From the NCBI GenBank assembly GCA_021650915.1, contig CP091279.1, positions 300,001 through 332,000 on the forward strand: 32,000 nt of DNA, written 5' to 3'. Source of the stretch: Candidatus Brocadia sp. (GTDB taxonomy: Bacteria; Planctomycetota; Brocadiia; Brocadiales; Brocadiaceae). A program made the translations under genes and the position numbers. Below, piece after piece: positions 13,853-29,049 of this stretch. Positions within the stretch are counted from its first letter, which is position 1. The number at the start of each line of letters is the position of its first letter. Under the pieces are notes generated by a model. The model searched no databases, was not told the DNA's origin, and saw only the letters and a program-made list of their open reading frames with translations.

Positions 13853-14058
13853 GCTGTTGTCCAAAAAATAGTCACACATCGTAAAGAAATTGCACCGAAC
13901 TATCTGTGATAGATGTCAATCCGGAACATTTTTCCCCGCTTCTGCTAAACAACTCCATTTTTCATGAAAATAGTTAGGGCATACAAGTATATCTAACTCT
14001 CATTATTGCAATATCATAAGATTATATTTGTTTGCCGTGCAGCGATGACACTTATTGT

Positions 14059-14074
14059 TGGTATCTTGTTTGCT
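14059..14074 (+). promoter_or_regulatory. sigma54 (RpoN) -24/-12 promoter for fliW-csrA(-TPR)
   Basis: TGGTATcttgtTTGCT has GG at 14060-14061 and GC at 14072-14073, 12 nt apart. It lies 52 nt upstream of fliW ATG 14125, within a 272-bp spacer. Confidence 0.6.
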
Positions 14075-14124
14075 ATTCGTCTATTTGCTCTTACACTATT
14101 TAACACTTTGATAGGAGTCAAAAA

Positions 14125-14589
14125 ATGTTAGAAATGAAAGAAGAATACCGGGAGAACGATAGTATTGTCAGTTTATCAACGGAGAAGTTTGGCAACTTGC
14201 ACATTGAAAAAAAAAATATCATAACCTTTGATGATGGTATGTTGGGTTTTGAAGATTTGAAGCAGTTTGTCATTGTCGATATTGAAGAATGCCTTCCGTT
14301 TGAATGGCTCGTTTCGGTGAAAGATCCTCTTATTGCGTTTCCAATTCTTAATCCAATCCCTTTCTTTACGGATTATAATCCTATGAAGGCCATTAATGAT
14401 CTGACATCTTTAAGCGGTGACAAGAAAGATATTGAAGTATTTTGCACGGTTACCCTGGGCAAGAGCGCTTCAGATGTTACCATAAATCTCAAAGGTCCTG
14501 TTATTATTAACATGAAAGATAAAAAAGGAAAACAATTTGTGTTGACTGAAGATTATTACAGTTTACATCATCCGCTTCTTAGAGCGTAG
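14125..14589 (+). CDS. fliW: Flagellar assembly factor FliW (CsrA antagonist)
   Basis: About 150 aa with FliW-like FGNLHIEKKNIITFDDGMLGFEDLKQFVIV...PFEWLVS...NLKGPVIIN. Located directly upstream of csrA. AGGAG Shine-Dalgarno. Confidence 0.85.
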   Translation: MLEMKEEYRENDSIVSLSTEKFGNLHIEKKNIITFDDGMLGFEDLKQFVIVDIEECLPFEWLVSVKDPLIAFPILNPIPFFTDYNPMKAINDLTSLSGDKKDIEVFCTVTLGKSASDVTINLKGPVIINMKDKKGKQFVLTEDYYSLHHPLLRA

Positions 14590-14616
14590 GTATCAATTTT
14601 TAGAAAGGAAAATATC

Positions 14617-14889
14617 GTGTTGATACTAACACGGAAGTTAGGTGAAAGTATTACCATCGGTGAAGAAATAAGGATTACCGTTGTAGACTGTCAGGGCAAA
14701 CAGGTTAAACTGGGAATTGTTGCGCCAAAGGAAGTTAAGGTTCATCGGGAAGAAATTTATGAAAAGATTCAGGAAGAAAATATGAAGGCTGCAAAGGTAT
14801 CGAAACAGGCGCTTATTGAAGTCGCTCAAAGTATGAAAAAGAAGGAAAAAAAATCAGGTAACAGTAGCAAAGATACGAGTTCTTCTTAA
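14617..14889 (+). CDS. csrA: Carbon storage regulator / translational repressor CsrA (long-tail, FliW-partnered type)
   Basis: [51 protein letters not shown] is canonical CsrA. GTG start behind AAAGGAA. It has an extra ~35-aa C-terminal extension. Confidence 0.95.
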
Positions 14890-14919: not shown

Positions 14920-16044
14920 ATGATAAATACGAACAAAAATATTTTGATAAAACCAGGTGTTGCTAACCAGAATGACATACAAAATTACGATGCTTTTAGA
15001 ACCAGAGTCAACCTTGCAAACAGCGCTATTGAAAAAGGAAACTGGGATGAGGCATATCCTAATTTAAAAGCGGCGGTGGAGATGAATCCTAACTATGCCC
15101 AAGGGTACAATCATTTGGGGGTCTTTTTTACCAGAAATAAAAAATATGAAGAGGCAATTGATAAATTTAAAAAGGCCTTGCAGATCGATTTTTCGATGAC
15201 CGAAGTTCACTATAATCTTGCTTACCTGTATATGGAACGCGAGGAATATAGCACGGCGCTTCCCTATCTGAAGGAAGTTGTCCTGGCGAATTCTGACGAT
15301 TATGAGACCTATTACCTTATGGGCATATGCTGCAGCCGCAGCGACATGAAAAATGAAGCTGAAGCGTTTTTTTCGGAGGCCCATCGATTAAGACCAGAAC
15401 ACATACCATCAGCAATAAATCTTAGCAAGCTCTTGATTAAGAAAACCGATTATACAAAGGCGAAGAATATACTTCTCTATACCTACATGAATGATCCTTC
15501 GCTTCCTGAAGTAAATCTTCTCCTTGGAATTATTTACAAAATGCAAAAAAAACATACGAGAGCAATGCATTATCTGAGGGAAACATTGCTCAAAGATAAA
15601 AATAATGCCGAGGCTTACAACCTGCTTGGTGAATGTTGTGTGGAATCAGGTATGGATAAGCAGGCGGAAGCTTTCTTTTCCATGGCAGTGAAACTCGATA
15701 GCATGTATCGTGAGGCATTTTACAATCTTGGTAATCTTTATTACCGGCAGGAAAAATATGAGAATGCCATTTATGCCCTGGAGGAATATCTCAAAACCAA
15801 AGAGGCCGCTGATACCATCAATTCACTGTGGTCTGAAAATGCCCATACAGACGATAGTGATGTCGTATCGCTTTACAATTTGCTGGGATATTGTTTTCAA
15901 GCGAAGAAAAATCCAATTAAGGCGCGTACTCTATGGGAAAAATCATTAGCCATACAGCCTCTGCAGCAGGACATAAAAGATGAACTGTCAAGACTTCCCC
16001 AATCGCCACTCGGACAAAAAAGGATCAGCCTTCTGATCGATTAG
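14920..16044 (+). CDS. Tetratricopeptide (TPR) repeat protein, no catalytic domain recognisable
   Basis: Serial 34-residue TPR units (for example NPNYAQGYNHLGVFFTRNKKYEEAIDKFKKALQID, EVHYNLAYLYMEREEYSTALPYLKEVV, AEAYNLLGECCVESGMDKQAEAFFSMAVKLD, EAFYNLGNLYYRQEKYENAIYALEEYL). It starts 30 nt after csrA. Confidence 0.85.
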   Translation: MINTNKNILIKPGVANQNDIQNYDAFRTRVNLANSAIEKGNWDEAYPNLKAAVEMNPNYAQGYNHLGVFFTRNKKYEEAIDKFKKALQIDFSMTEVHYNLAYLYMEREEYSTALPYLKEVVLANSDDYETYYLMGICCSRSDMKNEAEAFFSEAHRLRPEHIPSAINLSKLLIKKTDYTKAKNILLYTYMNDPSLPEVNLLLGIIYKMQKKHTRAMHYLRETLLKDKNNAEAYNLLGECCVESGMDKQAEAFFSMAVKLDSMYREAFYNLGNLYYRQEKYENAIYALEEYLKTKEAADTINSLWSENAHTDDSDVVSLYNLLGYCFQAKKNPIKARTLWEKSLAIQPLQQDIKDELSRLPQSPLGQKRISLLID

Positions 16045-16348: not shown

Positions 16349-17287
16349 ATGAGCTATAAAATTTTGGTTACGGGCGGTGCCGGCTACATAGGTTCAATTC
16401 TGGTTCCGGAATTATTAAAACAAGGGCATAAGGTAACCGTCCTGGATAACTTTATGTTTGGACAAAATTCGTTGCTCGAATGCTGTGCATATAACCATTT
16501 CGATGTTTTCAGGGGTGATGCAAGAGATGAAAGTATCTTAAAACCTCTTTTGCAAAAGCATGATTACATTATACCGCTGGCTGCGTTAGTAGGCGCTCCA
16601 CTTTGTAGCAGAGACAAGATAGGGACGGTAACAACGAGTAGAGATGCAGCTCTTTCCTTAGTAAAACTCGCATCTGCGGAACACAGAATAATTATACCAA
16701 CAACAAACAGTGGTTATGGTGTTGGCCAAAAAGGGGTGTACTGTACAGAGGAAACACCTTTGAAGCCGATTTCCTTGTACGGAATAGTAAAAGCGGAAGC
16801 AGAAAAGATCGTGCTTGATAGGGGGAACGCTATTAGTTTCAGGTTGGCTACGGTATTTGGAATGTCTCCAAGGATGCGCATTGATTTGCTGGTGAACGAT
16901 TTTACCTACCGGGCCGTGAATGACCGTTTTGTGGTAATATTTGAGGGTCATTTTAAGAGAAATTATATTCACATTCGTGATGTGGCAAGGGCTTTTCTTC
17001 ACGCAATAAACAACTTTGAGGGCATGAAAAATGAACCCTATAATGTGGGCATGTCAGATGCGAATCTTTCAAAGCTGGAACTGTGTGCGAAGATAAAAGA
17101 ATGTATTCCAGACTTCGTTTATTTAGAGTCGCCGGTTGGGGAAGACCCTGACAAAAGAGACTATGTCGTTTCCAACGAAAAAATTGAAAAGACCGGCTTT
17201 AAACCTCTTTATTCACTTGAGGCCGGGATAAAAGAACTTATTAAAGGATATAGAATAATTACAAACAGCAAATATGGCAATATTTAA
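16349..17287 (+). CDS. Extended-SDR NAD-dependent sugar epimerase/dehydratase
   Basis: Rossmann motif ILVTGGAGYIGS and catalytic YGIVKAEAE (YxxxK). About 310 aa. ATG 16349 is preferred (GGAG 10 nt upstream) over the ORF-track start 16295, because the glycine motif normally begins within ~10 residues of the N terminus. Confidence 0.85.
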   Translation: MSYKILVTGGAGYIGSILVPELLKQGHKVTVLDNFMFGQNSLLECCAYNHFDVFRGDARDESILKPLLQKHDYIIPLAALVGAPLCSRDKIGTVTTSRDAALSLVKLASAEHRIIIPTTNSGYGVGQKGVYCTEETPLKPISLYGIVKAEAEKIVLDRGNAISFRLATVFGMSPRMRIDLLVNDFTYRAVNDRFVVIFEGHFKRNYIHIRDVARAFLHAINNFEGMKNEPYNVGMSDANLSKLELCAKIKECIPDFVYLESPVGEDPDKRDYVVSNEKIEKTGFKPLYSLEAGIKELIKGYRIITNSKYGNI

Positions 17288-17338
17288 AGTAATACGGAAT
17301 TATACTCTTAATCTTATTACAAGATATAACTAACACTA

Positions 17339-18070
17339 TTGAATAACTTAACAAAAATTACAGCAACTATTCTTGCTGGAGGGTTTGGAACGCGTCTGTG
17401 TTCAGTAATATCCGGCCAGCCAAAAGTCCTGGCAAAAGTAAATGGCCGGCCTTTTATGGCTTACCTGCTGGATCAGTTAAGTCAGGCAGGAGTAAAAAAA
17501 GTTGTGTTGTGCACAGGCTATTTAGGAGAACAGGTAAAAGCAACTTTCGGCAAGTTCTATAACGATCTTGTGCTTTCATATTCCCAGGAACAGTCAGCTC
17601 TTGGAACCGGAGGTGCACTTAGAAGAGCGCTTCCAGTGTTAAAATCAGACCCCGTTTTGGTCTTAAATGGTGACTCATTTTGCCAAACCGATTTTATTTG
17701 TTTTCTGAACCAGCACATCACAGGGAAGGCAACCGCTTCTTTGCTTGTGGCTGAGGTACCAGACATTGGTCGTTACGGCTCCGTCAAGTTGTCGGCGGAT
17801 GATGAAATCATATCTTTTGAAGAAAAAGGTAAGAAAACCGGGACAGGATTAATCAATGCCGGGGTATATCTTTTAAATCATACCTTCCTGGAATCGATAC
17901 CGAAAGACACAAATGTTTCGCTGGAGCATGAGATATTCCCCTTGTGGATTAGCAAGGGACTTTATGGCTTTCGGAGCAAAGGAAATTTTATTGATATTGG
18001 AGTACCCCAAGATTATGCAGCAGCAGGGGGTTTTTTGAAGAGCAGCATTAAGGCATTCTCCATTAACTAA
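17339..18070 (+). CDS. Sugar-1-phosphate nucleotidyltransferase (HddC-like)
   Basis: N-terminal ILAGGFGTRL nucleotide-binding loop plus LNGDSF and GVYLL motifs. About 240 aa. TTG start with no in-frame ATG nearby. Paired with the HddA-like kinase downstream. Confidence 0.8.
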   Translation: MNNLTKITATILAGGFGTRLCSVISGQPKVLAKVNGRPFMAYLLDQLSQAGVKKVVLCTGYLGEQVKATFGKFYNDLVLSYSQEQSALGTGGALRRALPVLKSDPVLVLNGDSFCQTDFICFLNQHITGKATASLLVAEVPDIGRYGSVKLSADDEIISFEEKGKKTGTGLINAGVYLLNHTFLESIPKDTNVSLEHEIFPLWISKGLYGFRSKGNFIDIGVPQDYAAAGGFLKSSIKAFSIN

Positions 18071-18080
18071 GGAGAAAAAA

Positions 18081-19163
18081 ATGATTATAAGCAGAACACC
18101 TTACCGTATCTCCTTTTTTGGCGGTGGGACCGATTACCCGGTGTGGTATGAAAAACATGGTGGGGCTGTGCTGGCTACAACCATTGATAAGTATTGCTAT
18201 CTTACCTGCAGATATTTTCCTCCTTTTTTTGAACACAAATTTCGTATTGTTTGGTCAAAGATTGAAAATTGTGCTGATGCTCAGAAAATTAACCATCCCG
18301 CTGTACGTGAAATCTTAAATTTCTTGAAGCTCGAACGTGGTATTGAGATACATCACGTGGGTGACCTGCCAGCCAGAAGCGGTATGGGTTCAAGTTCTTC
18401 CTTTACCGTCGGGTTACTCCATGCGCTCTATGCACTGAAAGGCTATATGCCCACCAAACATCAGTTAGCAACAGAAAGCATTTTCATTGAGCAAGAACTC
18501 CTGAAAGAAACCGTTGGTTCTCAGGACCAAGTACTCGCAGCCCATGGTGGCTTCAATCAGATTCTCTTTCTTAAAAACGGTGAAATATCCGTTCATCCGA
18601 TAGTATTGCCATCAGAACGGTTTGACGAACTTAATTCACATCTTATGCTGTTCTATACGGGTATGAAACGTACCGCCTCTGATGTCGCAAGCTCCTATGT
18701 GCATGGTATAGAAGAGCGCAAACGACAATTACGCGTCATGAAGGATATTGTGGAAGAGAGTATTTCTATTCTTAATAGTAGCCATGATATTACCGCTTTT
18801 GGAGAATTGATGCACGAATCGTGGCTGGTTAAGCGTAGTTTAAGTTCCAATGTATCTAATCCACATATCGATGGAATTTATGAAACAGCTATTGCTGCGG
18901 GTGCAATTGGTGGTAAGTTAACTGGGGCAGGCGGCGGAGGATTCTTGCTTCTCTTTACTCCTCCGGACAAACGCAAAGATGTAAAGGAGGTGTTGCATAA
19001 TTTAATCTATGTGCCCTTTAAATTTGATTTCTCCGGGAGTCAGATTATTTACCATAATTTTGAGGAAGATTATTCAGGAATTGAGAAAGAGCGGGATAAT
19101 CAATCTATTATCTTATCGCGAAAACTTGAAAGTTATAACTGCCAGACATTGCAAAAAGTTTAA
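18081..19163 (+). CDS. GHMP-family sugar kinase (HddA-like, heptose-7-phosphate-kinase type)
   Basis: N terminus MIISRTPYRISFFGGGTDYPVWY, typical of the HddA subgroup. GHMP ATP motif GDLPARSGMGSSSSFTVGLLHAL and C-terminal KLTGAGGGGFLLLF. AAGGAG Shine-Dalgarno. Confidence 0.8.
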   Translation: MIISRTPYRISFFGGGTDYPVWYEKHGGAVLATTIDKYCYLTCRYFPPFFEHKFRIVWSKIENCADAQKINHPAVREILNFLKLERGIEIHHVGDLPARSGMGSSSSFTVGLLHALYALKGYMPTKHQLATESIFIEQELLKETVGSQDQVLAAHGGFNQILFLKNGEISVHPIVLPSERFDELNSHLMLFYTGMKRTASDVASSYVHGIEERKRQLRVMKDIVEESISILNSSHDITAFGELMHESWLVKRSLSSNVSNPHIDGIYETAIAAGAIGGKLTGAGGGGFLLLFTPPDKRKDVKEVLHNLIYVPFKFDFSGSQIIYHNFEEDYSGIEKERDNQSIILSRKLESYNCQTLQKV

Positions 19164-19171
19164 TTTTATAC

Positions 19172-20059
19172 GTGAATTTCCCTATGCAAAAGAACCTCTA
19201 TAAAGAATTGTTGTATCAAAAAGATATTCAAATGCTTGAAAATAAAGCCAGAGGCATCAGAGCAACCTGTATTAAAATGGCTCATGACGGTAAAGAGGGG
19301 CATTTAAATGGAGCTTTAAGTTGCGTTGATTTACTGGTCGGGCTATATTACACCTGGCTTGATGTTACACCCAATGACTCGCATAGAAAAGACAGAGATC
19401 GTTTTATATTCAGCAAAGGACATGCATGTTCATCACTTTATGCTGTAATGGCTGATCGTGGCTTTTTCCCCAAACACTGGATCTCCAGCTATGCACAAAA
19501 TGATTCTCCCTTACCGAGTCATCCGTGTATTCACGCCCTCCCGATTCTCGAATGCTCTTCGGGAAGCCTGGGACACGGGCTTGGTATGGCTACAGGCATG
19601 AGTTACGGCTTGCGAATGGATGGAATACAAGCAAGGGTGGTGGTTCTTATCAGTGACGGAGAATGTAACGAGGGGAGTACCTGGGAAGCGGCTACTTTTG
19701 CCGTGGCAAATCGACTCGATAATCTGCTGCTCATCGTAGACAATAATGGGATTCAGTCGGTAGGCCGATCAGATAGCCTGATGGGTTTCACATCGCTGGA
19801 AGAAAAATACACTGCGTTTGGCTGGACTACCCGAATGATAAATGGAAACAACATCATAGAGATTGTTGAAACATTAAAGGAATTCCCTTTTGAAAAAGGG
19901 CGTCCGTCAGCAATTATTGCAAAAACAGTAGCGGGTGCTGGTGTAAGTTTTATGAAAAATCAGGTACTCTGGCATTATCGGGTGCCATCTGACGAAGACC
20001 TTAAAAAAGCTATGCAAGAGTTAAGCGAAGTTCCCATTTATACGGAGTCAAATGCTTGA
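19172..20059 (+). CDS. Transketolase, N-terminal (thiamine-diphosphate-binding) subunit
   Basis: GHLNGALSCVDLLVGLYY, FIFSKGHACSSLYAVMADRGFF, SSGSLGHGLGMATGM and the ThDP motif ISDGECNEGSTWEAATFAVANRLDNLLLIVDNNG. The start is either GTG 19172 or ATG 19184. Confidence 0.85.
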   Translation: MNFPMQKNLYKELLYQKDIQMLENKARGIRATCIKMAHDGKEGHLNGALSCVDLLVGLYYTWLDVTPNDSHRKDRDRFIFSKGHACSSLYAVMADRGFFPKHWISSYAQNDSPLPSHPCIHALPILECSSGSLGHGLGMATGMSYGLRMDGIQARVVVLISDGECNEGSTWEAATFAVANRLDNLLLIVDNNGIQSVGRSDSLMGFTSLEEKYTAFGWTTRMINGNNIIEIVETLKEFPFEKGRPSAIIAKTVAGAGVSFMKNQVLWHYRVPSDEDLKKAMQELSEVPIYTESNA

Positions 20060-20976
20060 GAAAAGCATTCGCAGATACACTTACACAGATTGCGGAACAG
20101 AATTCTCGTGTTGTTCTTGTTACCGGTGATCTCGGATTCCAGGTTTTTGATGAATTTCATGCAAGGTTTGGCCCACGCTACATAAATGTCGGTGTTGCTG
20201 AAGCACAAATGATTTACGCGGCAGCAGGGCTTGCAACAGTTGGCTGGCGGCCTGTAACTTACTCTATTGCCTCGTTTGCAACGGCTCGACCTTTTGAGCA
20301 AATTCGTTATTGTGTAAGCTACCCAAATTTACCGGTTGTTATCGTAGGAGCAGGCAGGGGATATCTTTATTCGACCAGCGGTGTTTCACACCATGCCGCT
20401 GATGACCTTGCGCTCATGTCAGTACTTCCTGGAATGACGGTAGTAGCCCCTGGAGACCCGGACGAAGTAGTACAACTTTTCCCTCAACTATTTAATTTAC
20501 CAGGGCCTTCATATTTCACCGTAGGCCGCTTTGGCGAGCCATCGTATGAAGCCTCTGAACCAGCAATTTTAGGACGTGCCAGGCTTCTTCGTAAAGGAGA
20601 GCAAATAGCCATTATTGGTACTGGTGAAATTGCCAACGAAATACTGAAGGCAATGAAACTTCTCGAACCGGACAAGATTTTTCCAACTGTCTATCAGATG
20701 CACACGGTAAAGCCCCTGGATATGAACACGTTGAATTCGTTGGCAAAAGAGGTGCACGCTATGGTGGTGGTAGAGGAGCATGTCCCTCATGGTGGACTAT
20801 GGGCCGCCATAAGCACATGGCATATAAGTACCGAAACGACTCCTCGAATGATTCGGCTTGGCCCCCCTGATAGTTTTGTCTTTGGAAATTTACGGCAAGA
20901 CGAACTTAGGCGCCGACTCAATTTTGACGCTAACGCGATAGCAAGCACTTGTCGCTCGTTGTGGAAAAAGAAATAA
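20056..20976 (+). CDS. Transketolase, C-terminal (pyrimidine-binding) subunit
   Basis: MRKAFADTLTQIAEQNSRVVLVTGDLG...INVGVAEAQMIYAAAGLA...SHHAADDLALMSVLPGMTVVAPGD. The TTG start overlaps the stop of the N-subunit gene (TTGA), implying translational coupling. Confidence 0.85.
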   Translation: MRKAFADTLTQIAEQNSRVVLVTGDLGFQVFDEFHARFGPRYINVGVAEAQMIYAAAGLATVGWRPVTYSIASFATARPFEQIRYCVSYPNLPVVIVGAGRGYLYSTSGVSHHAADDLALMSVLPGMTVVAPGDPDEVVQLFPQLFNLPGPSYFTVGRFGEPSYEASEPAILGRARLLRKGEQIAIIGTGEIANEILKAMKLLEPDKIFPTVYQMHTVKPLDMNTLNSLAKEVHAMVVVEEHVPHGGLWAAISTWHISTETTPRMIRLGPPDSFVFGNLRQDELRRRLNFDANAIASTCRSLWKKK

Positions 20977-21130
20977 AATTTTTGTAACACTTTAGCTTTT
21001 TGAAAAAATTCCAGTAATGATGCTCTTATCGCACGCGGTAGAGGCAATTCATGAATTACCTCTCCATGTTAACACAAAGGCATTTTCAGTCATTGGCTTT
21101 TTCAAAAAACTAAAGTGTTGCAAATTTTTT
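20977..21130. repeat. 154-bp nested imperfect palindrome filling the whole intergenic spacer (MITE-like or long RNA hairpin)
   Basis: The outer arms 20981-21007 and 21098-21124 pair over 27 positions: 25 Watson-Crick pairs, one T-G and one C-A. At the centre is GAGG-c-AATTCATGAATT-a-CCTC (21041-21062), which contains a perfect 12-bp palindrome. The element starts right after the TAA stop (20974-20976) and ends at the AAGGAG Shine-Dalgarno (21131). Confidence 0.6.
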
Positions 21131-21141
21131 AAGGAGACGCT

Positions 21142-22110
21142 ATGTATCGTAAGATTTTAGTAACAGGAGGCTCTGCTGTGACTGGCAGTGCCTTAAAATC
21201 CATAATCGGTGATTATTCGGAAAGTACGTTCTTTTTCATAAATTCAAAGGATTGTAATCTGGTCGATAGCAATAAAACCATTGCATACATAAGTGAATTA
21301 CAGCCGGATGCTATCATTCATCTGGCGGCAATTAGCGGTGGTATCGGTCTGAGTATGAAATATCCAGCAACCCTATTACGGGATAACGTGTTGATGAATT
21401 TTAACATTCTTGAGGCAGGTAGGCGATGCAACATAAAAAAGATTGTTATGACCCTTACTACGGGCATGTATCCGGAGAATGCACCGCTTCCCCTCAAAGA
21501 AGAGTACATCCACAACGGTCATCCACATGAATCGAACTATGGTTCTTCGTTTGCAAAAAGGCTGGTTGATCCCGCTGTGAAAGCGTACCGGGCCGAATAT
21601 GGTTTAAATATCATAGGCTTGGTGCCAAACGGAATATTTGGTGAAAACGATAACTTCAATTACGACGATGCACCCATGGTTCCAACGCTTATCAGACGCT
21701 TTTATGAAAACAGACATGGCAATTCAAAAATAGTTATCTGGGGTGATGGTACTCCCCTTCGGGAATATACTTATGCAAAGGATGTCGCCAGGGCTTTCAT
21801 GTGGTGCCTGAACCATTATAATGATGCACAAATATTGAATATTGGCACAACTGAGGAACTTTCTGTAAAGGAAATAGCATATCTTATCGCCGGCTTCTTG
21901 AATATTGATACCAGTCGTATTGAATTTGACACAACAAAATCAAATGGAATATTCAAAAAGAGCGTAGATAATTCCCGTTTTATCAGTATCTCAAAATTCC
22001 AGTATACATCTTTTAAGGCCGGTTTGGAAAACACTATAAGGTGGTTTTGTGATACCTATCAGAAATCTCCCGAAAGCATAAGAATGAAGGGCAAAAGCAG
22101 GATCAACTAA
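21142..22110 (+). CDS. GDP-L-fucose-synthase-like (GMER/Fcl family) NDP-4-keto-sugar epimerase/reductase
   Basis: ILVTGGSAVTGSAL, DAIIHLAAISGGI, VPNGIFGENDNF and IVIWGDGTPLREYTYAKDVARAF follow the Fcl/WcaG pattern (xPxNxYGxxDNF and WGxGxPxREF). About 320 aa. AAGGAG Shine-Dalgarno. Confidence 0.75.
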   Translation: MYRKILVTGGSAVTGSALKSIIGDYSESTFFFINSKDCNLVDSNKTIAYISELQPDAIIHLAAISGGIGLSMKYPATLLRDNVLMNFNILEAGRRCNIKKIVMTLTTGMYPENAPLPLKEEYIHNGHPHESNYGSSFAKRLVDPAVKAYRAEYGLNIIGLVPNGIFGENDNFNYDDAPMVPTLIRRFYENRHGNSKIVIWGDGTPLREYTYAKDVARAFMWCLNHYNDAQILNIGTTEELSVKEIAYLIAGFLNIDTSRIEFDTTKSNGIFKKSVDNSRFISISKFQYTSFKAGLENTIRWFCDTYQKSPESIRMKGKSRIN

Positions 22111-22137
22111 GTTGGAACTATTATACTGGAAAAACCA

Positions 22138-23109
22138 ATGAAATACAGAAAACTTGGCAATACTGGAATAGAAGTATCAGAAATTGGGTTTGGCACATGG
22201 GGGCTAGGCGGTAATTCGTACGGTCCGGTCGATGACAATGTCTCTAAAACTGCCTTACGTTTTGCCTTTGATTCTGGAATAACTTTCTATGATACATCCG
22301 ATCTGTATGGCAATGGCCACAGTGAGGAAGTTCTAGGTGATGCATTGCACGATGTTAGAGATAAAATTATTATCTCTACAAAAGTTGGTTTGCTTCCGCA
22401 TACCGGCTTCGGCATGCCATGCGACTTTTCCCCTGCATACATAAGACAGGAGCTAGATGTTAGTTTAAGGCGATTAAGATCAGACTATGTTGATATCTAT
22501 CTTCTGCACAGTCCAACTATTGAAATGCTGAGAGAGGATCGAGAAATTGTTGCCACACTGCAAATCCTTAAAGAGGCTGGGAAAATCCATGCATACGGGA
22601 TTTCTGTAAGATCGCCTGATGATGGGCTTGTGGCAATTCAAGAATTTGGTATTAACGTAGTTCAGGTAAATTTTAACATGATTGATCACAGAGCAATTGA
22701 TAACGGCCTGTTTGATGTAGCCTGCGAGAAGAAGGTAGGGGTTATTGCGCGAACGCCGCTGTGTTTTGGATATTTAACAGGCAAGTTGCATGGGAACGAA
22801 AAATTTGAAGGTATAGATCACAGAGCGAATTGGCCAGTAGACCAGCGACAAAGATGGGCTAATGCCCCCGATTTATTTTTGTTCCTGAACCAAAGGAAGA
22901 ACCGTACTCCGGCACAGTCGGCGTTGCGGTTCTGCCTTGACCATAAAAGCGTTTCAACAGTTATTCCTGGTATGATGAATTGCAACGAAGTCCGAGAAAA
23001 TGCCCTGGCCAGCAGTTTGGAAGCATTGAGTGCTGAAGAAGTGGCAAGAATCAAATTGATATATGAAAACAACGTCTTTTATGACCATTCTGCTAAACAA
23101 AGAAAGTAA
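22138..23109 (+). CDS. Aldo/keto reductase
   Basis: MKYRKLGNTGIEVSEIGFGTWGLGG...GITFYDTSDLYGNGHSEEVLGDAL...YVDIYLLHSP is the classic AKR signature. Confidence 0.9.
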   Translation: MKYRKLGNTGIEVSEIGFGTWGLGGNSYGPVDDNVSKTALRFAFDSGITFYDTSDLYGNGHSEEVLGDALHDVRDKIIISTKVGLLPHTGFGMPCDFSPAYIRQELDVSLRRLRSDYVDIYLLHSPTIEMLREDREIVATLQILKEAGKIHAYGISVRSPDDGLVAIQEFGINVVQVNFNMIDHRAIDNGLFDVACEKKVGVIARTPLCFGYLTGKLHGNEKFEGIDHRANWPVDQRQRWANAPDLFLFLNQRKNRTPAQSALRFCLDHKSVSTVIPGMMNCNEVRENALASSLEALSAEEVARIKLIYENNVFYDHSAKQRK

Positions 23110-23112
23110 GCC

Positions 23113-23880
23113 GTGACTCTTCAAGATCCATCACGATTTCTAGAGCCAGCAAGGACAACAACTGGTGAAGTTCAATTTCGGGTTATTTTGGAAGATTATT
23201 TTTCAAACAGCATCGGAAGCAACGTGGAGAAACTGCAGAATTTTACCAAATATGTGCCAACGCAGGATCTGAGAAAATTCCTTTGCAGGTATGAGCTCTT
23301 TAGAAAAATCCTGCATGTTCATGGTTCAATCGTCGAATGTGGTGTGCTCTACGGTGGTGGTTTGATGGCGTGGGCGCAGTTAAGTGAAATTTTTGAACCG
23401 TTGAATCATCTTCGAAATATCATCGGTTTTGACACTTTTTCAGGTTTTGTTTCTCTTTCTGAAATGGATAAAACAGGCACTGCATTTCAGGGTAAAAATG
23501 GAGGATTGGCAATAGATGCTTATGATGACTTGCTAAAAAGTATTGCCTTATATAATAAAAATCGTTTTCTCGCCCACATAGAGAAAGTCAAATTGGTTAA
23601 AGGCGATGTTGCCGTATCTCTTCCCGCATATCTAAAGACAAATCCACATCTTGTTGTTAGCCTTTTGTATCTTGATTTTGACATATATGAACCTACAGTC
23701 GTTGCCCTTAGGCATCTAATACCAAGGATTCCTAAGGGAGGCATCATAGCTTTTGACGAACTAAACCACGAGGTTTGGCCAGGTGAAACAATTGCGGTAA
23801 TGCAGGAGATGGGTTTAAACAAGCTAAGAATAGAAAGATTTCCTTTTGGTTCTACCATGTCATATGCAGTAATTGAATGA
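23113..23880 (+). CDS. TylF/MycF-type SAM-dependent sugar O-methyltransferase
   Basis: GSIVECGVLYGGGLMAWAQL (SAM loop), YLDFDIYEPTVVALRHLIPRIPKGGIIAFDE and a size of ~255 aa match the macrocin-O-methyltransferase fold family. GTG start 3 nt after the AKR stop. Confidence 0.7.
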   Translation: MTLQDPSRFLEPARTTTGEVQFRVILEDYFSNSIGSNVEKLQNFTKYVPTQDLRKFLCRYELFRKILHVHGSIVECGVLYGGGLMAWAQLSEIFEPLNHLRNIIGFDTFSGFVSLSEMDKTGTAFQGKNGGLAIDAYDDLLKSIALYNKNRFLAHIEKVKLVKGDVAVSLPAYLKTNPHLVVSLLYLDFDIYEPTVVALRHLIPRIPKGGIIAFDELNHEVWPGETIAVMQEMGLNKLRIERFPFGSTMSYAVIE

Positions 23881-23911: not shown

Positions 23912-24880
23912 ATGTCTATGTATAGCCAGCGGAACTTATCAAAATTGACTATAGATGATTTTGCCAGACTATTTGGCACAACTGCAGATGATATTGACGA
24001 GTATTGCAAGGGGCTTGTAGATACGATGGATTTCAGTTTTGAACAACTTTCTGATATTGAGCGAGACAAGTTGATACTTAACATACTAAAAAGGATTGAT
24101 TTGGCCGATTTGCCTGTATCTGGGGAGGAAAGAAAGCCGGAATGGGAAAAAGGCTGGGCGGATAATCTTCGGGATTTTATTAATTCAGGATATGATCTCT
24201 CTAAACTTGTCCCAAAGTATTTCAAGAAAAATATCCCGGTTCGGCTCAATCGTGAATATGTGATGCCGGTGGATCCTGACTTTGTCCTTAATTGTACCAG
24301 GGTTTTTCGCAATTGGATATTCAGGAAATATTTGAAAGATGTCGATTCTATCTACGAATTCGGTTGCGGCCCTGCCACACACCTTGCCTTTTTGGCAGGT
24401 ATTTATCCTGGAAAGAAGCTCTATGGGCTCGACTGGGCAAAACCTTCGCAGGAAATTATCCGGCTCTTGGCAAAACATTTTGGCTGGCAAATAGAAGGAC
24501 GTCATTTTGATTTTTTTGCCCCTGATGTAAATCTGCATTTGGACGAAAACAGTGCAGTTTATACTTTTGGAGCGCTTGAGCAAATAGGAGGGAATCATAA
24601 AGCCTTCCTGCAATTTTTGTTGAAAGAATCTTTCAAGCTGTGCATTAATGTTGAATGTATCAGTGAATTCTACAATCAGGACTACTTGCCAGATTATCTC
24701 GCCTTTAAATATCACAAAAGAAGAAACTACCTGGATGGCTATCTTACCCGTTTGCAGGAATTGGAGGCTGAAGGAAAGATCATAATACTGGCAATGCACC
24801 ATCAGCAATTTGGCAATATATATGATGATTCTCATTCTTATGTGGTATGGAAACTAAGGAAAATACCTGCTACATCATAA
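23912..24880 (+). CDS. Class I SAM-dependent methyltransferase with an uncharacterised N-terminal domain
   Basis: Motif I IYEFGCGPATHLAFLAGIYPGKKLYGLDWA and a post-I acidic residue. Downstream is AVYTFGALEQIGGNHKAFLQFL. The first ~150 aa have no recognisable family. The start is uncertain among TTG 23873, ATG 23912 and ATG 23918. Confidence 0.6.
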   Translation: MSMYSQRNLSKLTIDDFARLFGTTADDIDEYCKGLVDTMDFSFEQLSDIERDKLILNILKRIDLADLPVSGEERKPEWEKGWADNLRDFINSGYDLSKLVPKYFKKNIPVRLNREYVMPVDPDFVLNCTRVFRNWIFRKYLKDVDSIYEFGCGPATHLAFLAGIYPGKKLYGLDWAKPSQEIIRLLAKHFGWQIEGRHFDFFAPDVNLHLDENSAVYTFGALEQIGGNHKAFLQFLLKESFKLCINVECISEFYNQDYLPDYLAFKYHKRRNYLDGYLTRLQELEAEGKIIILAMHHQQFGNIYDDSHSYVVWKLRKIPATS

Positions 24881-24890: not shown

Positions 24891-25400
24891 ATGGAAGTTA
24901 AGCAAACTAAACTTACAGGAGTTTTGACGATTAAGCCCCCTACTATTTTTGAAGATTTCAGGGGAACGTATGTTGAATTGTACAATGAACAGCTTTACAT
25001 AAATGCCGGAATAAAAGTAAAATTTATCCAGGATGATATTTCTATTTCCTCAAAGCATGTCTTACGCGGTATTCACGGTGACAAGGAAACATGGAAATTA
25101 ATTTCCTGTTTATATGGCAAATTTTATTTAGTCGTGGTTAATTGGGACAAGAATTCCCTCCAGTATTGCCAGTGGGAATCCTTCACCTTATCAGAAAAAA
25201 ATTGTATTCAAGTCTTAGTGCCTCCAAATTTTGGCATTGGCCATCTGGTTTTAAGTGAACAGGCGATATTTAGCTACAAACAAAGCACCTACTATAATCG
25301 TGCCAATCAATTTACCCTCGTGTGGAATGACCAGAAACTTAATATATGGTGGCCAATTAATAATCCAATCTTATCACAAAGAGACTCAGGGATTGGTTAA
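24891..25400 (+). CDS. RmlC-type cupin NDP-4-keto-sugar 3,5-epimerase
   Basis: TKLTGVLTIKPPTIFEDFRGTYVELYN...LRGIHG...KLISCLYGKFYLVVVN...LVPPNFGIGHLVLSE follows the dTDP-4-dehydrorhamnose 3,5-epimerase pattern (FxDxRG, RGLH, cupin core). About 170 aa. Confidence 0.8.
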   Translation: MEVKQTKLTGVLTIKPPTIFEDFRGTYVELYNEQLYINAGIKVKFIQDDISISSKHVLRGIHGDKETWKLISCLYGKFYLVVVNWDKNSLQYCQWESFTLSEKNCIQVLVPPNFGIGHLVLSEQAIFSYKQSTYYNRANQFTLVWNDQKLNIWWPINNPILSQRDSGIG

Positions 25401-25440: not shown

Positions 25441-28400
25441 ATGTCTGTGTCTGTTAAAAACCGTGCCAGCCTGAGAGTTTTATATATTCCTTTAGAGTTT
25501 AAAACGTGGCAAAATGCAAGCCACCTTCCTTACTCTGGGAATTATGGTTTTGAAGAAGGGTTCACTGCTAACGGGATGGAATATCTGACGATTCCAGCCT
25601 TTTATGAAACGACATCTTCCGAACAGATATCATGGCTGAACCATGCACGTGAGCTTTGTGCAGGAAAAAATTTTGATCATGTTTGGCTTGAGATCGTTCA
25701 TAGTAGATTTGATGAAAGTTTTCTGGACTGGATTGCGACAATAGCTCCGGTTCGCATTGGCTTTGTCTGGGAAAGCTGTGAAATGCACCCTGACGAAATT
25801 GTAAATAATCCCGAAGGTGTCAAAAGACGACAAGCTAATCTCGAAAGGAATTTTAAATTTGTAACGCATGTCGTTGCTATTGACGAAAAAGATGTGGAAA
25901 ATTTTAACACCCATAACTTGGTAAAAACCAAATGGTTATGGGATGCCGGAATAATGCCTGAACGTTTCATCTGCAAGGAACTTCCGTCAACGCCCGCGCC
26001 CAATAATTGTGCAGTTTTTTATGGGTCTCTCTATGGTGAAAGGAAAAAATGGCTGGAACATAGCGCCTTGAAGGGTTTACTGGTCCGCCCGGTGGCTTCT
26101 CCAGAATATAGCACCAATCTGCCTGGTCTTTTTGATAAATTGAATGCTACTTCTGATGCATTTTTAAAAGAAGAGCAGGCCTCTACCGAAGAGTTCTTTT
26201 CTACTTATATAGACTCTTTGCGTGTCATTCGCAGGGAATGCTTTGCCCTTTGGCTGAGTGGACTGAGTATGGGGGTTGCGATTGTGAATTTACCGCAATT
26301 TGGTAAGGGTTATGCAAGCCGTGTACTTGAAGGGATGGCCGCGGGACGTCCGGTTATAAGCTATGAAATCCCAGACCGGCCAAGAACCAAAGCTCTCTTT
26401 GAGGATGGGAAAGAAATTTTGTTGTACAAAGGAGATGATCCTTATCAGTTGGCGGAACATATACAACGGATTTTGCGTGAGCCGGACTTTGCCAGGAGGA
26501 TCTCAGCGAATGCCAGAAGCAAAATAATGAGTTTTCATACCACGGAAAGATTGGTTAGCCAGATACTTGACTGGGTTGAAAATCGGGAAATAAATTCTTC
26601 TTTAATGGCTCATCCTTTACAAGGTAATCAAACACAGCCTGGCAACAAGATGCTGTTGACGCGAAATTTTTATGGTCCGGGAGATATCGTATTTGATGTT
26701 GGAGCAAATGTCGGCGACAAGACTCATATGTTTTTAGAGAGTGGCGCAAAGGTAATATGTTTTGAACCTCAATCTGATTGCACAACGATATTGCAGAAGA
26801 AGTACGGCAATGACAAAAGAGTAGTAATTGTTGAAAAAGGCTTGGCTGATAAAAATGGAAAAAGGCTACTTTCTGTATGCTCACAGGCTAACACAATCTC
26901 CACTTTTTCAGATGACTGGAAAAAGGGAAGATTTGCTGACTATACATGGGATAAATCTGACGTGGTAGAAGTTATTACTCTTGATGATGCTATTCATACT
27001 TATGGATTCCCTCAATACGTCAAGATTGATGTAGAAGGATTTGAATATCAGGTTCTGTGTGGTTTATCTAAACCAGTTCCATATTTATCATTTGAATTTA
27101 CAATTGAATTTCTTGATCGTGCAAAGCAGTGCATGTCTCATTTGGAGAGACTCGGTTACGAATTCTTTAATTTTTCCGAAAAAGAAATACCTCAACTGGT
27201 TCTTTCCGAATGGGTTTCCTCAAAAACTCTTTTTAAAAAATTGGAACGTTTGACAGATCAGTTATATTGGGGTGACATTTACGCAAAGTACGATACGTTA
27301 TCTCCGAATAATAAAAAAAATTTTACTCATGAAATTAAACACATTCTTCCTGATAAATCAGCAGTAGCAGCAAATATAAGAAATACGATTTCAACTGTTA
27401 ATACCAATATTCTCAAACAACTCTATATTACAGGTCTTTGGGGTGACAATCAGCCGCTTCGCCTTCACCTTGGTTGCGGAGAACAGCGCCTCGATGGCTA
27501 TGTAAATATTGATTATCCACCAAGCGAGCATAATGTCATGCAGGTGAAAGCGGATGTTTATGCGAACATTATGGAATTAGATTTTCCTGCAGGGTCTGTA
27601 GACGAGATCAGGTCGCACCATGTCTTTGAGCACTTTAATCGTGTTACAGCCCTGGCGATGCTTATCAAATGGCACCATTGGCTAAAGGTCGGCGGAAAAC
27701 TGCATATTGAGACGCCTGATCTCGTTGGTAGTGCAAAGACGTTGTTGGGCGATTACTCCTGGAAGACAAAAATGGGGGCAGTTCGGCATATAGCCGGGGA
27801 TCAGTCTTCCGGTTGGTCATATCATATTGATCACTGGTTTCCCGAAAGATTTGAACACACTTTGAATAATCTGGGATTTCGGCCTGTACAAACCCAGTCA
27901 ACATCCTGGCCACACGATCCATTTTTGTCAAACGTTACCGCTATTGCTGTAAAATCGCACAATGTCTCTTTGTCAGAGCAGGTAAAGGCCGCTGATGAAT
28001 TGTTGTGGGAAAGTACTGTTGCATCCACTGAGCAACCAACCTATGAAGTCTGGAAGCAACAGCTTCGTTCTCTTTTGTCAGACAAATCCGAAATGGCATC
28101 ACAGGTGCCTTTGGGTTCTCAGTTAGAACAGGTCGCTCACGTCTTTCAGCAATCCAAGTCAGAGCAATCAATTCAGGAAATACACGACTTTAACCAGAGA
28201 GAGCGCGACAGATGGGTTCAACTGAAGGCGGTGACCGTGCCTGCAGGTTCACGAGTGTTAGATATCGGTGCGGGAACGTGTCCCTATCGTGCGCTATTTG
28301 CGCATGGTGATTACAAAACGCATGATTTCAAACGATACACGGGTGAGAAGCTTGGTGGAACAACGGAATACGGCAAGATTGATTATGAATCGGATATTTG

Positions 28401-29049
28401 CGCTATACCCGTACCGGACAACTCCTTTGACGTAATCGTCTGCACTGAAGTCCTGGAACATACTCCGGAACCAATCGAAGCGCTCCGGGAGATGTCGAGG
28501 ATCTTAAAGGAGGGCGGCAGACTGTTCCTGACCGCTCCGCTTGGGTCCGGACTGCATCAACTGCCGTATCACTATTATGGCGGGTTCACGCCGGAATGGT
28601 ACAAGCATTTTTGCAGTAAATTCGGTTTATATGTCTCCGAAATCTCACCAAACGGGGGGTTTTTCAAACTGCTTGCTCAGGAATGTGCACGTGTGGCCTG
28701 GACATTGCCTCAACACCAGCATCTGCATGGGAATAACGTGGAGTTGATCAAAAACCTGTTCGGTGAATGGATACCTCGCTATTTATTTGAGCTGGAAAAG
28801 AAACACGGTATTGACCAGTTCACCGTCGGCTATCACGTAGAAGCTGTGAAAGTCAGAGATATCGATACCGTTCAGAAATTGATTGAAAACGATCTCCAAA
28901 ATGTGAATCTCTATCTTGAAGCCGCACGATCTCTGTTGAATCAAGGTGAGTATTTACCTGCAAGAAGGTATGTAGAAGACGCATTGGAACTCAACCATAG
29001 CAATACCACGCTTATTGAGATGCATCAACAATTGGTGAATAAGCCATGA
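25441..29049 (+). CDS. 1202-aa fusion: GT-B-like glycosyltransferase + FkbM-type methyltransferase + two class I SAM methyltransferase domains + TPR-like tail
   Basis: The GT1-type C-lobe is ASRVLEGMAAGRPVISYEIPDRPRTKALFEDGKEILLY (~26320-26440). The FkbM domain is GDIVFDVGANVGDKTH...VKIDVEGFEYQVL (~26660-27200). The second methyltransferase is LRLHLGCGEQRLDGYVNIDY...HVFEHF...LKVGGKLHIETPD (~27457-27950). The third is RVLDIGAGTCPY...FDVIVCTEVLEHTPEPIEALREMSRILKEGGRLFLTAP (~28200-28700). The tail is LYLEAARSLLNQGEYLPARRYVEDALELN. AAGGAG Shine-Dalgarno. Single uninterrupted ORF. Confidence 0.75.
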   Translation: MSVSVKNRASLRVLYIPLEFKTWQNASHLPYSGNYGFEEGFTANGMEYLTIPAFYETTSSEQISWLNHARELCAGKNFDHVWLEIVHSRFDESFLDWIATIAPVRIGFVWESCEMHPDEIVNNPEGVKRRQANLERNFKFVTHVVAIDEKDVENFNTHNLVKTKWLWDAGIMPERFICKELPSTPAPNNCAVFYGSLYGERKKWLEHSALKGLLVRPVASPEYSTNLPGLFDKLNATSDAFLKEEQASTEEFFSTYIDSLRVIRRECFALWLSGLSMGVAIVNLPQFGKGYASRVLEGMAAGRPVISYEIPDRPRTKALFEDGKEILLYKGDDPYQLAEHIQRILREPDFARRISANARSKIMSFHTTERLVSQILDWVENREINSSLMAHPLQGNQTQPGNKMLLTRNFYGPGDIVFDVGANVGDKTHMFLESGAKVICFEPQSDCTTILQKKYGNDKRVVIVEKGLADKNGKRLLSVCSQANTISTFSDDWKKGRFADYTWDKSDVVEVITLDDAIHTYGFPQYVKIDVEGFEYQVLCGLSKPVPYLSFEFTIEFLDRAKQCMSHLERLGYEFFNFSEKEIPQLVLSEWVSSKTLFKKLERLTDQLYWGDIYAKYDTLSPNNKKNFTHEIKHILPDKSAVAANIRNTISTVNTNILKQLYITGLWGDNQPLRLHLGCGEQRLDGYVNIDYPPSEHNVMQVKADVYANIMELDFPAGSVDEIRSHHVFEHFNRVTALAMLIKWHHWLKVGGKLHIETPDLVGSAKTLLGDYSWKTKMGAVRHIAGDQSSGWSYHIDHWFPERFEHTLNNLGFRPVQTQSTSWPHDPFLSNVTAIAVKSHNVSLSEQVKAADELLWESTVASTEQPTYEVWKQQLRSLLSDKSEMASQVPLGSQLEQVAHVFQQSKSEQSIQEIHDFNQRERDRWVQLKAVTVPAGSRVLDIGAGTCPYRALFAHGDYKTHDFKRYTGEKLGGTTEYGKIDYESDICAIPVPDNSFDVIVCTEVLEHTPEPIEALREMSRILKEGGRLFLTAPLGSGLHQLPYHYYGGFTPEWYKHFCSKFGLYVSEISPNGGFFKLLAQECARVAWTLPQHQHLHGNNVELIKNLFGEWIPRYLFELEKKHGIDQFTVGYHVEAVKVRDIDTVQKLIENDLQNVNLYLEAARSLLNQGEYLPARRYVEDALELNHSNTTLIEMHQQLVNKP

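Follow-up and report, generated by a model that had tools for sequence, protein, structure and literature searches.

Modification of guanosine diphosphate (GDP)-heptose is known almost entirely from the capsules of Campylobacter, Yersinia, and Burkholderia. In Campylobacter jejuni, Cj1427 and its chemistry have been described, including the requirement of this enzyme for alpha-ketoglutarate as a sacrificial oxidant, and the phosphatase GmhB (Cj1152) sits in the lipopolysaccharide (LPS) locus, outside the capsule cluster (PMC10680097). Thiamine diphosphate (ThDP)-dependent enzymes act on other nucleotide sugars: the E1-type pairs AviB1/AviB2 (avilamycin eurekanate) and Plm8/Plm9 (paulomycose), as well as YerE (yersiniose), place two-carbon branches onto nucleoside diphosphate (NDP)-4-keto-sugars (PMC4802897). 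We analyzed a 32,000-nucleotide stretch of a Candidatus Brocadia sp. chromosome (contig CP091279.1, positions 300,001 to 332,000; referred to here as the window and numbered from its first letter) in which elements of both kinds of system lie side by side. Five genes, all on the plus strand at 16349-20976, encode an extended short-chain dehydrogenase/reductase (SDR1), a nucleotidyltransferase, a GHMP kinase, and the N- and C-terminal subunits of a split transketolase (TK)-like enzyme (TK-N and TK-C). These positions, and the reading of the last two genes as coupled halves of one transketolase, agree with an initial annotation of the stretch made from its sequence.

The best explanation of the locus is that 16349-25400, together with the glycosyltransferase and methyltransferase genes that continue to the window end, forms one portable cassette for a modified GDP-heptose, with the TK-like enzyme adding carbon to the sugar. 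We assign this combined statement a probability of roughly 0.5. Its parts are not equally secure. The production of a GDP-heptose, predicted from homology and gene neighborhood, can be proposed with good confidence, while the specific role of the TK pair, two-carbon transfer onto a GDP-keto-heptose, is tentative and is held at somewhat below even odds.

The heptose assignment draws on several enzymes of the cassette. SDR1 (16349..17287, plus strand) aligns with PDB 6VO6/6VO8 over residues 1-311 of both proteins at ∼57% identity (E = 3.5e-113, 381 bits). We take 6VO6 to be C. jejuni Cj1427, the GDP-heptose C4-dehydrogenase, in view of the depositor's molecule name and of the citation in PMC10680097 (Huddleston et al., Biochemistry 2020). 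The RmlC-fold epimerase encoded at 24891..25400 (plus strand; Pfam dTDP_sugar_isom) is predicted to be a GDP-4-keto-heptose C3/C5 or C3 epimerase. Its eight best PDB matches are all from C. jejuni and score 117 to 127 bits, compared with at most 106 bits for true RmlC. Four of them (8dco, 8db5, 8dcl, and 8dak) are named as GDP-4-keto-heptose (GDP-D-glycero-4-keto-D-lyxo-heptose) 3,5- or 3-epimerases, one (7m14) carries a GDP-D-glycero-L-gluco-heptose name, and three (7ang, 7an4, and 7ani) carry an RmlC-type name; 8dco, 8db5, 7m14, and 8dcl match with E values of 1e-33 to 1e-36, ahead of dTDP-rhamnose RmlC. The HddA-like kinase (18081..19163, plus strand; N terminus MIISRTPYRISFFGGGTDYP) has heptose kinases as all of its top four PDB matches, namely, 3k85 from Bacteroides thetaiotaomicron, Burkholderia WcbL (4usk/4usm), and 4n3o from C. 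jejuni (E = 1e-35 to 1e-38), and its top NCBIfam family is HddA, at 145 bits against a 600-bit equivalog cutoff.

The HddC-like protein beside the kinase (17339..18070, plus strand; ILAGGFGTRL motif; Pfam NTP_transferase, E = 1.9e-28) finds its best PDB matches in the Yersinia pseudotuberculosis "6-deoxy-D-mannoheptose pathway protein" HddC (6jq8/5xhw, E ∼1e-36). Its best NCBIfam families, mannose-1-phosphate guanylyltransferase (161 bits; cutoff, 440) and HddC (150.5 bits; cutoff, 300), both score below cutoff. It is likely a guanylyltransferase, with heptose-1-phosphate as the predicted substrate. The pairing of an HddA-type kinase with an HddC-like guanylyltransferase resembles the characterized GDP-heptose activation route, as does the presence of GmhA and GmhB in orthologous cassettes. 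The window differs from that route in that GmhA and GmhB are both absent from the locus and in that its kinase and transferase are ∼30 to 36% identical to the characterized enzymes; with scores well under the NCBI equivalog cutoffs, both are diverged family members and not close orthologues of those enzymes. The heptose assignment is well supported at the level of homology by three independent lines, SDR1, the RmlC-like epimerase, and the kinase. The initial annotation had likened the kinase and nucleotidyltransferase to heptose enzymes and had named clustering with fucose or N-acetylglucosamine (GlcNAc) systems as the contrary outcome. No such clustering was seen: the PDB matches and the GmhA/GmhB genes beside kinase orthologues place the kinase, and probably the transferase, with heptose enzymes. 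As one reading, the annotation had also suggested that the genes are devoted to supplying a nucleotide sugar of the heptose type, and the SDR1, epimerase, and kinase evidence supports this insofar as homology can identify the sugar. It did not extend to the Cj1427-type identity of SDR1, the continuation of the unit to at least 25400, or the position of the cassette directly after flagellar genes.

To place the block in a wider context, the neighborhoods of kinase orthologues were compared. The kinase subfamily is very large and well conserved, with at least 8,000 database proteins at E ≤1e-20; the best 120 are all at least 68% identical to the window's kinase, and the best relatives come from Geobacter, Desulfobacterales, cyanobacteria, and others. 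The nearest relatives of the window are metagenome-assembled genomes (MAGs) of Brocadiaceae/Planctomycetota, with 77 to 92% identity over the whole block, and the same gene order is found at 50 to 90% identity in unrelated lineages; the arrangement is therefore not due to chance. A scan that took one genome per species and used the kinase as its sole seed, so that it was unbiased as to the ThDP enzyme, yielded 28 loci. SDR1 homologues (50 to 87% identity) adjoin the kinase orthologues in at least 16 of these, and a two-subunit ThDP enzyme is encoded within 10 kb of the kinase in 24/28, two of the four loci that lack one being contigs of 2 to 3 kb. The co-occurrence of TK-N/TK-C with HddA/HddC-like genes, which the initial annotation had put forward for a check, was thus recovered across species in the wider form of a ThDP enzyme near the kinase, and it shows a ThDP-dependent step to be a recurrent and, judging from gene content, integral part of GDP-heptose-derived sugar biosynthesis.

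The TK clade of the window was sampled in eight independent lineages, comprising the window and other Brocadiaceae, Geomonas (locus L006), and loci L034-L039. The TK pair adjoins the kinase and SDR1 in all eight and was found only within heptose cassettes. It is accompanied by a GDP-fucose-synthase (Fcl)-like reductase, SDR2, at 58% identity or more in 7/8 lineages and by an aldo/keto reductase (AKR) in 6/8, L037 and L039 among them. In a Nealsonbacteria MAG (L024, 1422-3557), a single open reading frame (ORF) joins TK-C to a domain homologous (46% identity) to the methyltransferase-like protein encoded at 23912-24880 of the window, and this fusion is a Rosetta-stone link between the two proteins. 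Neither this combination of genes nor a transketolase in heptose, flagellin glycosylation, polysaccharide, or O-antigen clusters was found to be described in the literature searched.

Three types of ThDP enzyme occur in heptose cassettes: the TK type, pyruvate dehydrogenase (PDH)-E1 alpha/beta pairs, and minimal E1_dh plus Transket_pyr pairs (∼205 + 182 amino acids [aa]). E1-type pairs are present in L009, L018, L019, L025, L028, L029, and L037 but not in the window, and those of the AviB/Plm-like PDH-E1 alpha/beta kind lie at the equivalent place in many related cassettes. A trio of PDH-E1 alpha, E1 beta, and a DegT aminotransferase, present instead of or besides the TK pair in L029-L031 (12200-15398) and in L009, L010, L018, L019, L025, L026, and L028, is 63 to 76% identical between cyanobacteria and Myxococcota and looks like a second uncharacterized ThDP module acting on GDP-heptose derivatives. 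The minimal pairs, which have no TKC domain, occupy the same cassette position in Verrucomicrobiales and Paceibacterota MAGs (L014, 2820-3969; L017, 8743-9909). Locus L037 (1-20942) encodes an SDR-GmhB-GmhA-kinase string, an E1 pair, two Glyco_trans_1_2 proteins, and a window-clade TK pair with its SDR and AKR. Also encoded there are an HldE-like protein (CTP_transf_like+PfkB), another SIS protein, and a radical-SAM enzyme, and the locus seems to unite the two heptose activation routes as well as the two ThDP types.

The TK pair itself is recognizable by fold family and cofactor site. TK-N (19172..20059, plus strand; Pfam Transketolase_N, E = 6e-35), the diphosphate-binding subunit, matches the split transketolase of Carboxydothermus hydrogenoformans (PDB 6yak chain A) at E = 6.7e-65, and TK-C (20056..20976, plus strand; Pfam Transket_pyr and Transketolase_C), the pyrimidine-binding subunit with the TKC domain, matches PDB 6yaj at E = 1.3e-42. 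The pair scores marginally as E1_dh (19.8 bits), and its Pfam class is Transketolase_N plus Transket_pyr/Transketolase_C. It shares with the Carboxydothermus enzyme the two-subunit architecture, the ThDP/Mg motif (DGECNEG...DNN), the cofactor-activating Glu, and four donor-site histidines (GH, SKGH, SHP, and WH), which we take to correspond to E. coli His26, His66, His100, and His261.

The acceptor side is different. Conservation in TK-C was counted over 120 clusters of orthologues that share 60% identity or more, in which the activating Glu (AE motif) is kept in 120/120. Relative to canonical transketolases, THAG is replaced by GAGRG, SKST by GFQV (with a one-residue deletion), and GEDG by STSG. 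The replaced positions are presumably those of E. coli His461 and Ser385, which form part of the phosphate site, and Asp469, which reads the acceptor C2 hydroxyl; to our knowledge, the His, the Ser/Thr loop, and the Asp are invariant in transketolases. The canonical His position is Gly in all 120 clusters, and the canonical Asp position is Ser or Ala in 119. By contrast with these, two phosphate-binding arginines, which we equate with E. coli Arg358 and Arg520, are retained (Arg2 in 116/116 clusters and Arg/Lys158 in 116/120). An exhaustive profile-free search of 1.84 billion representatives with TK-C returned 1,076 relatives at E ≤1e-30. Among the 150 nearest 50%-identity representatives (P0361-P0510), about 140 have Gly and a non-Asp residue at the canonical His and Asp sites, and canonical ATHAG...GxDG proteins first appear at 172 bits or less. 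By these comparisons, the TK-C of the window is placed in a large, noncanonical group of "transketolase family proteins" that has neither a solved structure nor an assigned function. The substrate-site replacements are fixed, and the protein is therefore not to be filed as a canonical transketolase.

From these assignments, a pathway can be proposed in which the steps up to the remodeling of the sugar follow homology and context. Sedoheptulose-7-phosphate (S7P) would be isomerized to heptose-7-phosphate by a GmhA encoded elsewhere, the HddA-type kinase (18081) would phosphorylate C1 to give the 1,7-bisphosphate, a GmhB also encoded elsewhere would take off the 7-phosphate, and the nucleotidyltransferase (17339) would convert the resulting 1-phosphate to GDP-heptose. 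SDR1 (16349) would then oxidize C4, and the 4-keto sugar would be remodeled by the epimerase (24891), SDR2 (21142), and methyltransferases, as in the C. jejuni capsular heptose pathways. The cassette parallels the Cj1427/Cj1430/Cj1428 system in combining SDR1, an RmlC-fold epimerase, a GDP-fucose-synthase-like reductase, and methyltransferases. It departs from that system in its SDR2, which is nearer to eukaryote-type GDP-fucose synthase (human GDP-L-fucose synthase 4e5y, 247 bits) than to the C. jejuni heptose C4-reductase Cj1428 (7m13, 89 bits, partial) and whose NCBIfam Fcl score of 195 bits is under the 500-bit cutoff, and in having a ThDP enzyme and an AKR, neither of which is listed in the C. 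jejuni heptose pathways of PMC10680097.

The TK step is the one that we infer. Because the donor histidines are retained, a dihydroxyethyl-ThDP intermediate is proposed, which the TK pair (19172-20976) would form from a ketol donor, either a ketose phosphate or hydroxypyruvate. Because the acceptor site is remodeled, a nonstandard electrophile is proposed, and the obvious one in the cassette would be the keto group of GDP-4-keto-heptose. The two-carbon unit would thus be transferred to the carbonyl of a GDP-keto-heptose, most simply at C4, where addition would create a tertiary carbinol with a ketol branch. The product would be a nine-carbon sugar, branched or extended, with a new ketone for the AKR and/or SDR2 to reduce. 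As in the YerE, AviB1/AviB2, and Plm8/Plm9 systems, a ThDP enzyme would act within a nucleotide-sugar cluster that has a 4-keto intermediate. Unlike AviB and Plm, which are E1 enzymes, and YerE, an acetohydroxyacid synthase-like flavoprotein, the window pair is of the TK type; the unit transferred would be glycolaldehyde and not a pyruvate-derived acetyl group, and the substrate, if correctly predicted, would be a GDP-heptose and not a deoxythymidine diphosphate (dTDP)- or cytidine diphosphate (CDP)-deoxyhexose. Another parallel is the steroid-17,20-desmolase DesAB, a split TK-like pair whose proposed substrate is a nonphosphorylated ketol borne on a tertiary carbinol; next to it lies 20-HSDH, a reductase for the ketol carbonyl (PMC5408610). 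Its reaction mirrors the chemistry of a ketone plus a two-carbon unit in reverse, but DesAB is catabolic, has a steroid substrate, and lacks nucleotide-sugar genes, and it is likened to the window pair by gene arrangement and proposed chemistry.

Several points weigh against two-carbon transfer onto a GDP-keto-heptose. Transketolases normally attack aldehydes, not ketones. The two phosphate-binding arginines of TK-C are retained, and an additional Arg101 aligns with an Arg of DXS; a small aldehyde carrying a phosphate could thus still serve as the acceptor. A C4-reductase-like SDR nearly always follows the TK pair and would be redundant if C4 were a tertiary carbinol. Locus L037 carries an E1 pair in addition to its TK pair, which weakens the idea that the E1 type and the TK type simply stand in for one another. 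The anammox protein glycans described so far are plain heptose chains on the S-layer, with no C9 sugar among them. As for the flagellum as the destination of the sugar, the case is one of gene adjacency, seen in 3/8 lineages; other lineages have the cassette with Wzm/Wzt or Wzz genes.

The alternative that survives best, although we consider it improbable, is that the TK-like enzyme works away from the ring carbonyl as a lyase or transferase, either removing a ketol side chain in a desmolase-like reaction or supplying a C2-C4 substituent (of the glycolyl, glyceryl, or tetritol type) that, after reduction by the AKR and methylation, is joined to the heptose. The split TK-like DesAB, proposed to cleave a ketol side chain and encoded next to a ketoreductase, offers a model for the lyase (PMC5408610), and split transketolases for unusual substrates exist, such as a 6-deoxy-6-sulfofructose transketolase (PMC11659671). 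The TK-SDR2-AKR trio and the fusion of TK-C with the methyltransferase-like protein fit a small side pathway of this sort, and an intact C4-reductase-like SDR2 is easier to accommodate if C4 is unbranched. Against it, the cassette lacks an acyl carrier, a lipoyl protein, a ligase, and any obvious transferase by which such a substituent could be handled, and, on chemical reasoning, a pyranose heptose has no free hydroxyl beside a 6-keto group for TK-type cleavage.

Less probable again is that the split TK serves this pathway as its own transketolase and enlarges the S7P pool (from xylulose-5-phosphate and ribose-5-phosphate) for GDP-heptose synthesis, in the manner of some secondary-metabolite clusters that carry their own transketolase or transaldolase. 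The initial annotation had seen the enzyme as the S7P maker of the block, and the idea has an evident logic: S7P, a transketolase product, is the precursor of the pathway, the TK gene directly follows the kinase gene, and the cofactor motif and four donor-site histidines of TK-N are kept along with the two phosphate-binding arginines of TK-C. However, three canonical substrate-site residues, the phosphate-binding His and Ser and the C2-hydroxyl-binding Asp, are replaced in a manner fixed over the 120 clusters, the clade is confined to heptose cassettes in the sampled lineages, and the PDH-E1-type or minimal E1-type enzymes that occupy the equivalent place elsewhere are unable to make S7P. As far as conserved residues can be read for function, these features argue strongly against both a housekeeping role and simple S7P supply, each of which is unlikely.

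The initial annotation had also cast the split TK as a replacement for GmhA and GmhB. Neither a GmhA (SIS) nor a GmhB (HAD) was detected in the 32-kb window, either by tblastn with the cyanobacterial proteins (E ≤1e-6) or by Pfam scans, in line with what had been noted at the outset, and the Pfam scans of the window's other ORFs returned flagellar and glycan genes only. Among orthologues of the kinase (48 to 70% identity), GmhA and/or GmhB is encoded within 10 kb in 11 of the 28 species loci, which belong to Myxococcota, Saccharibacteria, Cloacimonadales, other candidate phyla radiation (CPR) lineages, Pelagibacteraceae (SAR11), and Thermoplasmatales (archaea), and also in the cyanobacterial loci L029-31. 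GmhA is present in 10 of the kinase-seeded species loci as well as in L037 and L039. The cyanobacterial locus has the order SDR1-NT-GmhB-GmhA-kinase (NT, nucleotidyltransferase), with a kinase 70% identical to that of the window.

A bypass in which the TK, perhaps with the AKR, builds the kinase substrate without GmhA and GmhB, for example, from unphosphorylated sugars, would explain why both genes are absent from the window and from six of the eight cassettes of its TK clade. The two remaining cassettes speak against it. L037 (TK-C 62% identical) and L039 (65%) hold the window's TK clade, GmhA, GmhB, and the AKR in the same gene string; the TK therefore adds to the GmhA/GmhB route without replacing it, and the AKR is no surrogate. 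For the same reason, the AKR at 22138, which had been offered as a nonorthologous substitute for the missing steps, was rejected as a stand-in for either the isomerase or the phosphatase. Moreover, the kinase is 64 to 70% identical to kinases that adjoin GmhA/GmhB, so it likely has the same substrate. Loci without the two genes belong mostly to LPS-bearing diderms (Planctomycetota, Geobacterales, Verrucomicrobiales, Proteobacteria, and Pseudobdellovibrionaceae), and those with them mostly to CPR bacteria, archaea, cyanobacteria, Myxococcota, and SAR11. Lineages with in-cluster GmhA/GmhB are mostly not expected to have an adenosine diphosphate (ADP)-heptose LPS pathway, with exceptions such as L018 and L026. 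In-cluster GmhA/GmhB thus follows taxonomy rather than TK presence.

The same pattern bears on where the two steps are encoded in the organism of the window. In Ca. Kuenenia stuttgartiensis, ADP-activated and GDP-activated heptose have both been detected by metabolomics, and ADP-heptose genes are present in its genome; among the genomes examined in an anammox study, homologues of the GDP-heptose pathway were reported to be nearly exclusive to Kuenenia and Brocadia sinica. Kuenenia thus has the ADP-heptose pathway, and C. jejuni borrows its GmhB from the LPS cluster (PMC10680097), a precedent that the window resembles in having part of the route outside the cluster. Of the two options for the missing steps, encoding elsewhere in the genome was the one that held up: by analogy with these systems and with the taxonomy of the GmhA/GmhB loci, the GmhA and GmhB steps are most likely encoded outside the window and shared with the ADP-heptose/LPS route, and the bypass is very improbable. 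The weakest alternative, that the ThDP enzyme helps SDR1 indirectly by processing a 2-oxo-acid or carbonyl co-substrate that reoxidizes tightly bound reduced nicotinamide adenine dinucleotide (NADH), is highly improbable: Cj1427 does need alpha-ketoglutarate as an oxidant (PMC10680097) and most loci do hold a ThDP enzyme along with SDR1 and the kinase, but C. jejuni does without such an enzyme, alpha-ketoglutarate is abundant, TK-type enzymes are inactive on it, and the idea is without precedent.

We return to the cassette for a modified GDP-heptose and to the genes that make it up. For SDR1, the ATG at 16349 is preceded by GGAG and gives an N terminus (MSYKILVTGGAGYIGS) that agrees with PDB 6VO6; it is likely the start in preference to the TTG at 16295, where the mechanically called ORF begins. 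TK-C is translationally coupled to TK-N: its TTG start shares 4 nucleotides (TTGA) with the upstream TGA stop, a GGAG lies 9 nucleotides upstream, and the 4-nucleotide overlap recurs in L034 and L035. Downstream, and all on the plus strand, follow SDR2 (21142..22110), a GDP-L-fucose-synthase-like reductase with a match to PDB 4e5y that is predicted to be a ketoreductase acting on a GDP-keto-sugar; the AKR (22138..23109; Pfam Aldo_ket_red, E = 4.5e-57); a TylF-family S-adenosylmethionine (SAM)-dependent methyltransferase (23113..23880; Pfam TylF, E = 3.5e-9) conserved in L001, L003, L034, and L035; and a class I SAM-dependent methyltransferase-like protein (23912..24880). The last of these has a weak Pfam Methyltransf_25 match and no significant Pfam family, and NCBI gives its Geomonas homologue the name "class I SAM-dependent methyltransferase." Its ORF opens at 23873, but a database protein with 100% identity, P0241, has a length of 322 aa, and Met14 (23912) is therefore the likely start. 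The epimerase gene comes next.

Beyond the epimerase gene, a gene at 25441..29049 (plus strand) encodes a 1,202-aa fusion in which Pfam finds a Glyco_trans_1_2 glycosyltransferase (GT) domain together with methyltransferase domains, one of the FkbM type and one or more of class I. This composition points to a heavily methylated glycan. In Geomonas edaphica (L006), the cassette is followed by a homologue with 50% identity, and a comparably large GT comes after it in L034. Six-frame translation shows a long open frame at 29052..32000 (plus strand), 983 codons without a stop, that runs off the window end. By eye, it looks like a large GT with several GT2-like stretches, and tblastn matches it to the GT regions of L006 (62%) and L024 (40%). 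An Rfam search of 29050-32000 gave no match, and the possibility that this interval is an ORF desert, an RNA, or a pseudogene was rejected in view of the single long ORF that continues past the window end. Intergenic gaps in the sugar block are 3 to 51 nucleotides, except for 165 nucleotides before 21142. Promoter and terminator scans over the cassette gave counts no better than those for shuffled sequence; a single long operon is plausible from the short gaps and overlaps. The functional unit takes in everything up to 25400 at least, and probably also the glycosyltransferase genes that fill the rest of the window.

Upstream of the cassette, the plus strand carries flagellar genes at 778-14889 (FliK, FlgD, FlgE, FlgF/G, FlgA, FlgH, FlgI, rod-binding protein, FlgN, FlgK, FlgL, FliW, and CsrA), and between csrA and the sugar genes lies a gene for a tetratricopeptide repeat (TPR) protein (14920..16044, plus strand), which is matched by many TPR Pfam families. 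The TPR protein is kept upstream of the cassette in the Brocadiaceae loci L001, L003, and L004 at 56 to 58% identity and is possibly a partner of the glycosyltransferases, which would make it a member of the system. The cassette stands right after FlgK-FlgL-FliW-CsrA in three distant lineages, namely, that of the window, L034 (1-5831), and L036 (1-1958), a flagellar context that differs from the capsular setting of C. jejuni. Together with the very large glycosyltransferases after the cassette and the TPR protein before it, this position suggests flagellar glycosylation, or that of another surface protein, as the target. No flagellin (fliC) gene was found in the window. In other lineages, the cassette is found with Wzm/Wzt or Wzz genes, and these varied neighbors indicate that it is a portable sugar-synthesis module. 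In Kuenenia, oligo-heptose O-glycans decorate the S-layer protein, and the HddA/HddC pair could also feed anammox S-layer oligo-heptose glycans of this type.

B12-binding radical-SAM enzymes, which are absent from the window, recur in related loci (L030, 16477-18471; L032, 6600-8108; L034, 13686-15731; L035, 12897-16006; and L039, 13595-15595). They are probably C-methyltransferases and are a hint that, outside the window's lineage, the sugar gains still more carbon.

The core of HddA, HddC, and a Cj1427-type dehydrogenase is spread over Planctomycetota, Desulfobacterota, cyanobacteria, CPR bacteria, and archaea, mostly with a two-subunit ThDP enzyme. The pathway is probably a variant of the known GDP-heptose modification pathways, and the function of the TK-like family may be new. 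In its fullest form, a noncanonical TK-like family would have been recruited to nucleotide-sugar biosynthesis to add glycolaldehyde to GDP-4-keto-heptose, and the resulting C9 sugar would be reduced, methylated, and placed on flagellin or a surface protein, with E1-type enzymes doing likewise in related bacterial, CPR, and archaeal cassettes; at this level of detail, we regard the proposal as speculative and, on balance, doubtful. If carbon-carbon bonds are formed on GDP-keto-heptose, this would be a new reaction class for TK-like proteins, with a nucleotide sugar, and possibly a ketone, as the acceptor, and it could provide new carboligation biocatalysts. The addition of carbon to GDP-heptose by ThDP enzymes would in that case be a widespread and unrecognized route to higher-carbon sugars and would explain the origin of some of the unusual higher-carbon or branched sugars of surface glycans. 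In anammox bacteria, the GDP-heptose that metabolomics detected probably comes from this cassette, which also points to a second heptose glycan, a modified one that may be carried by the flagellum.

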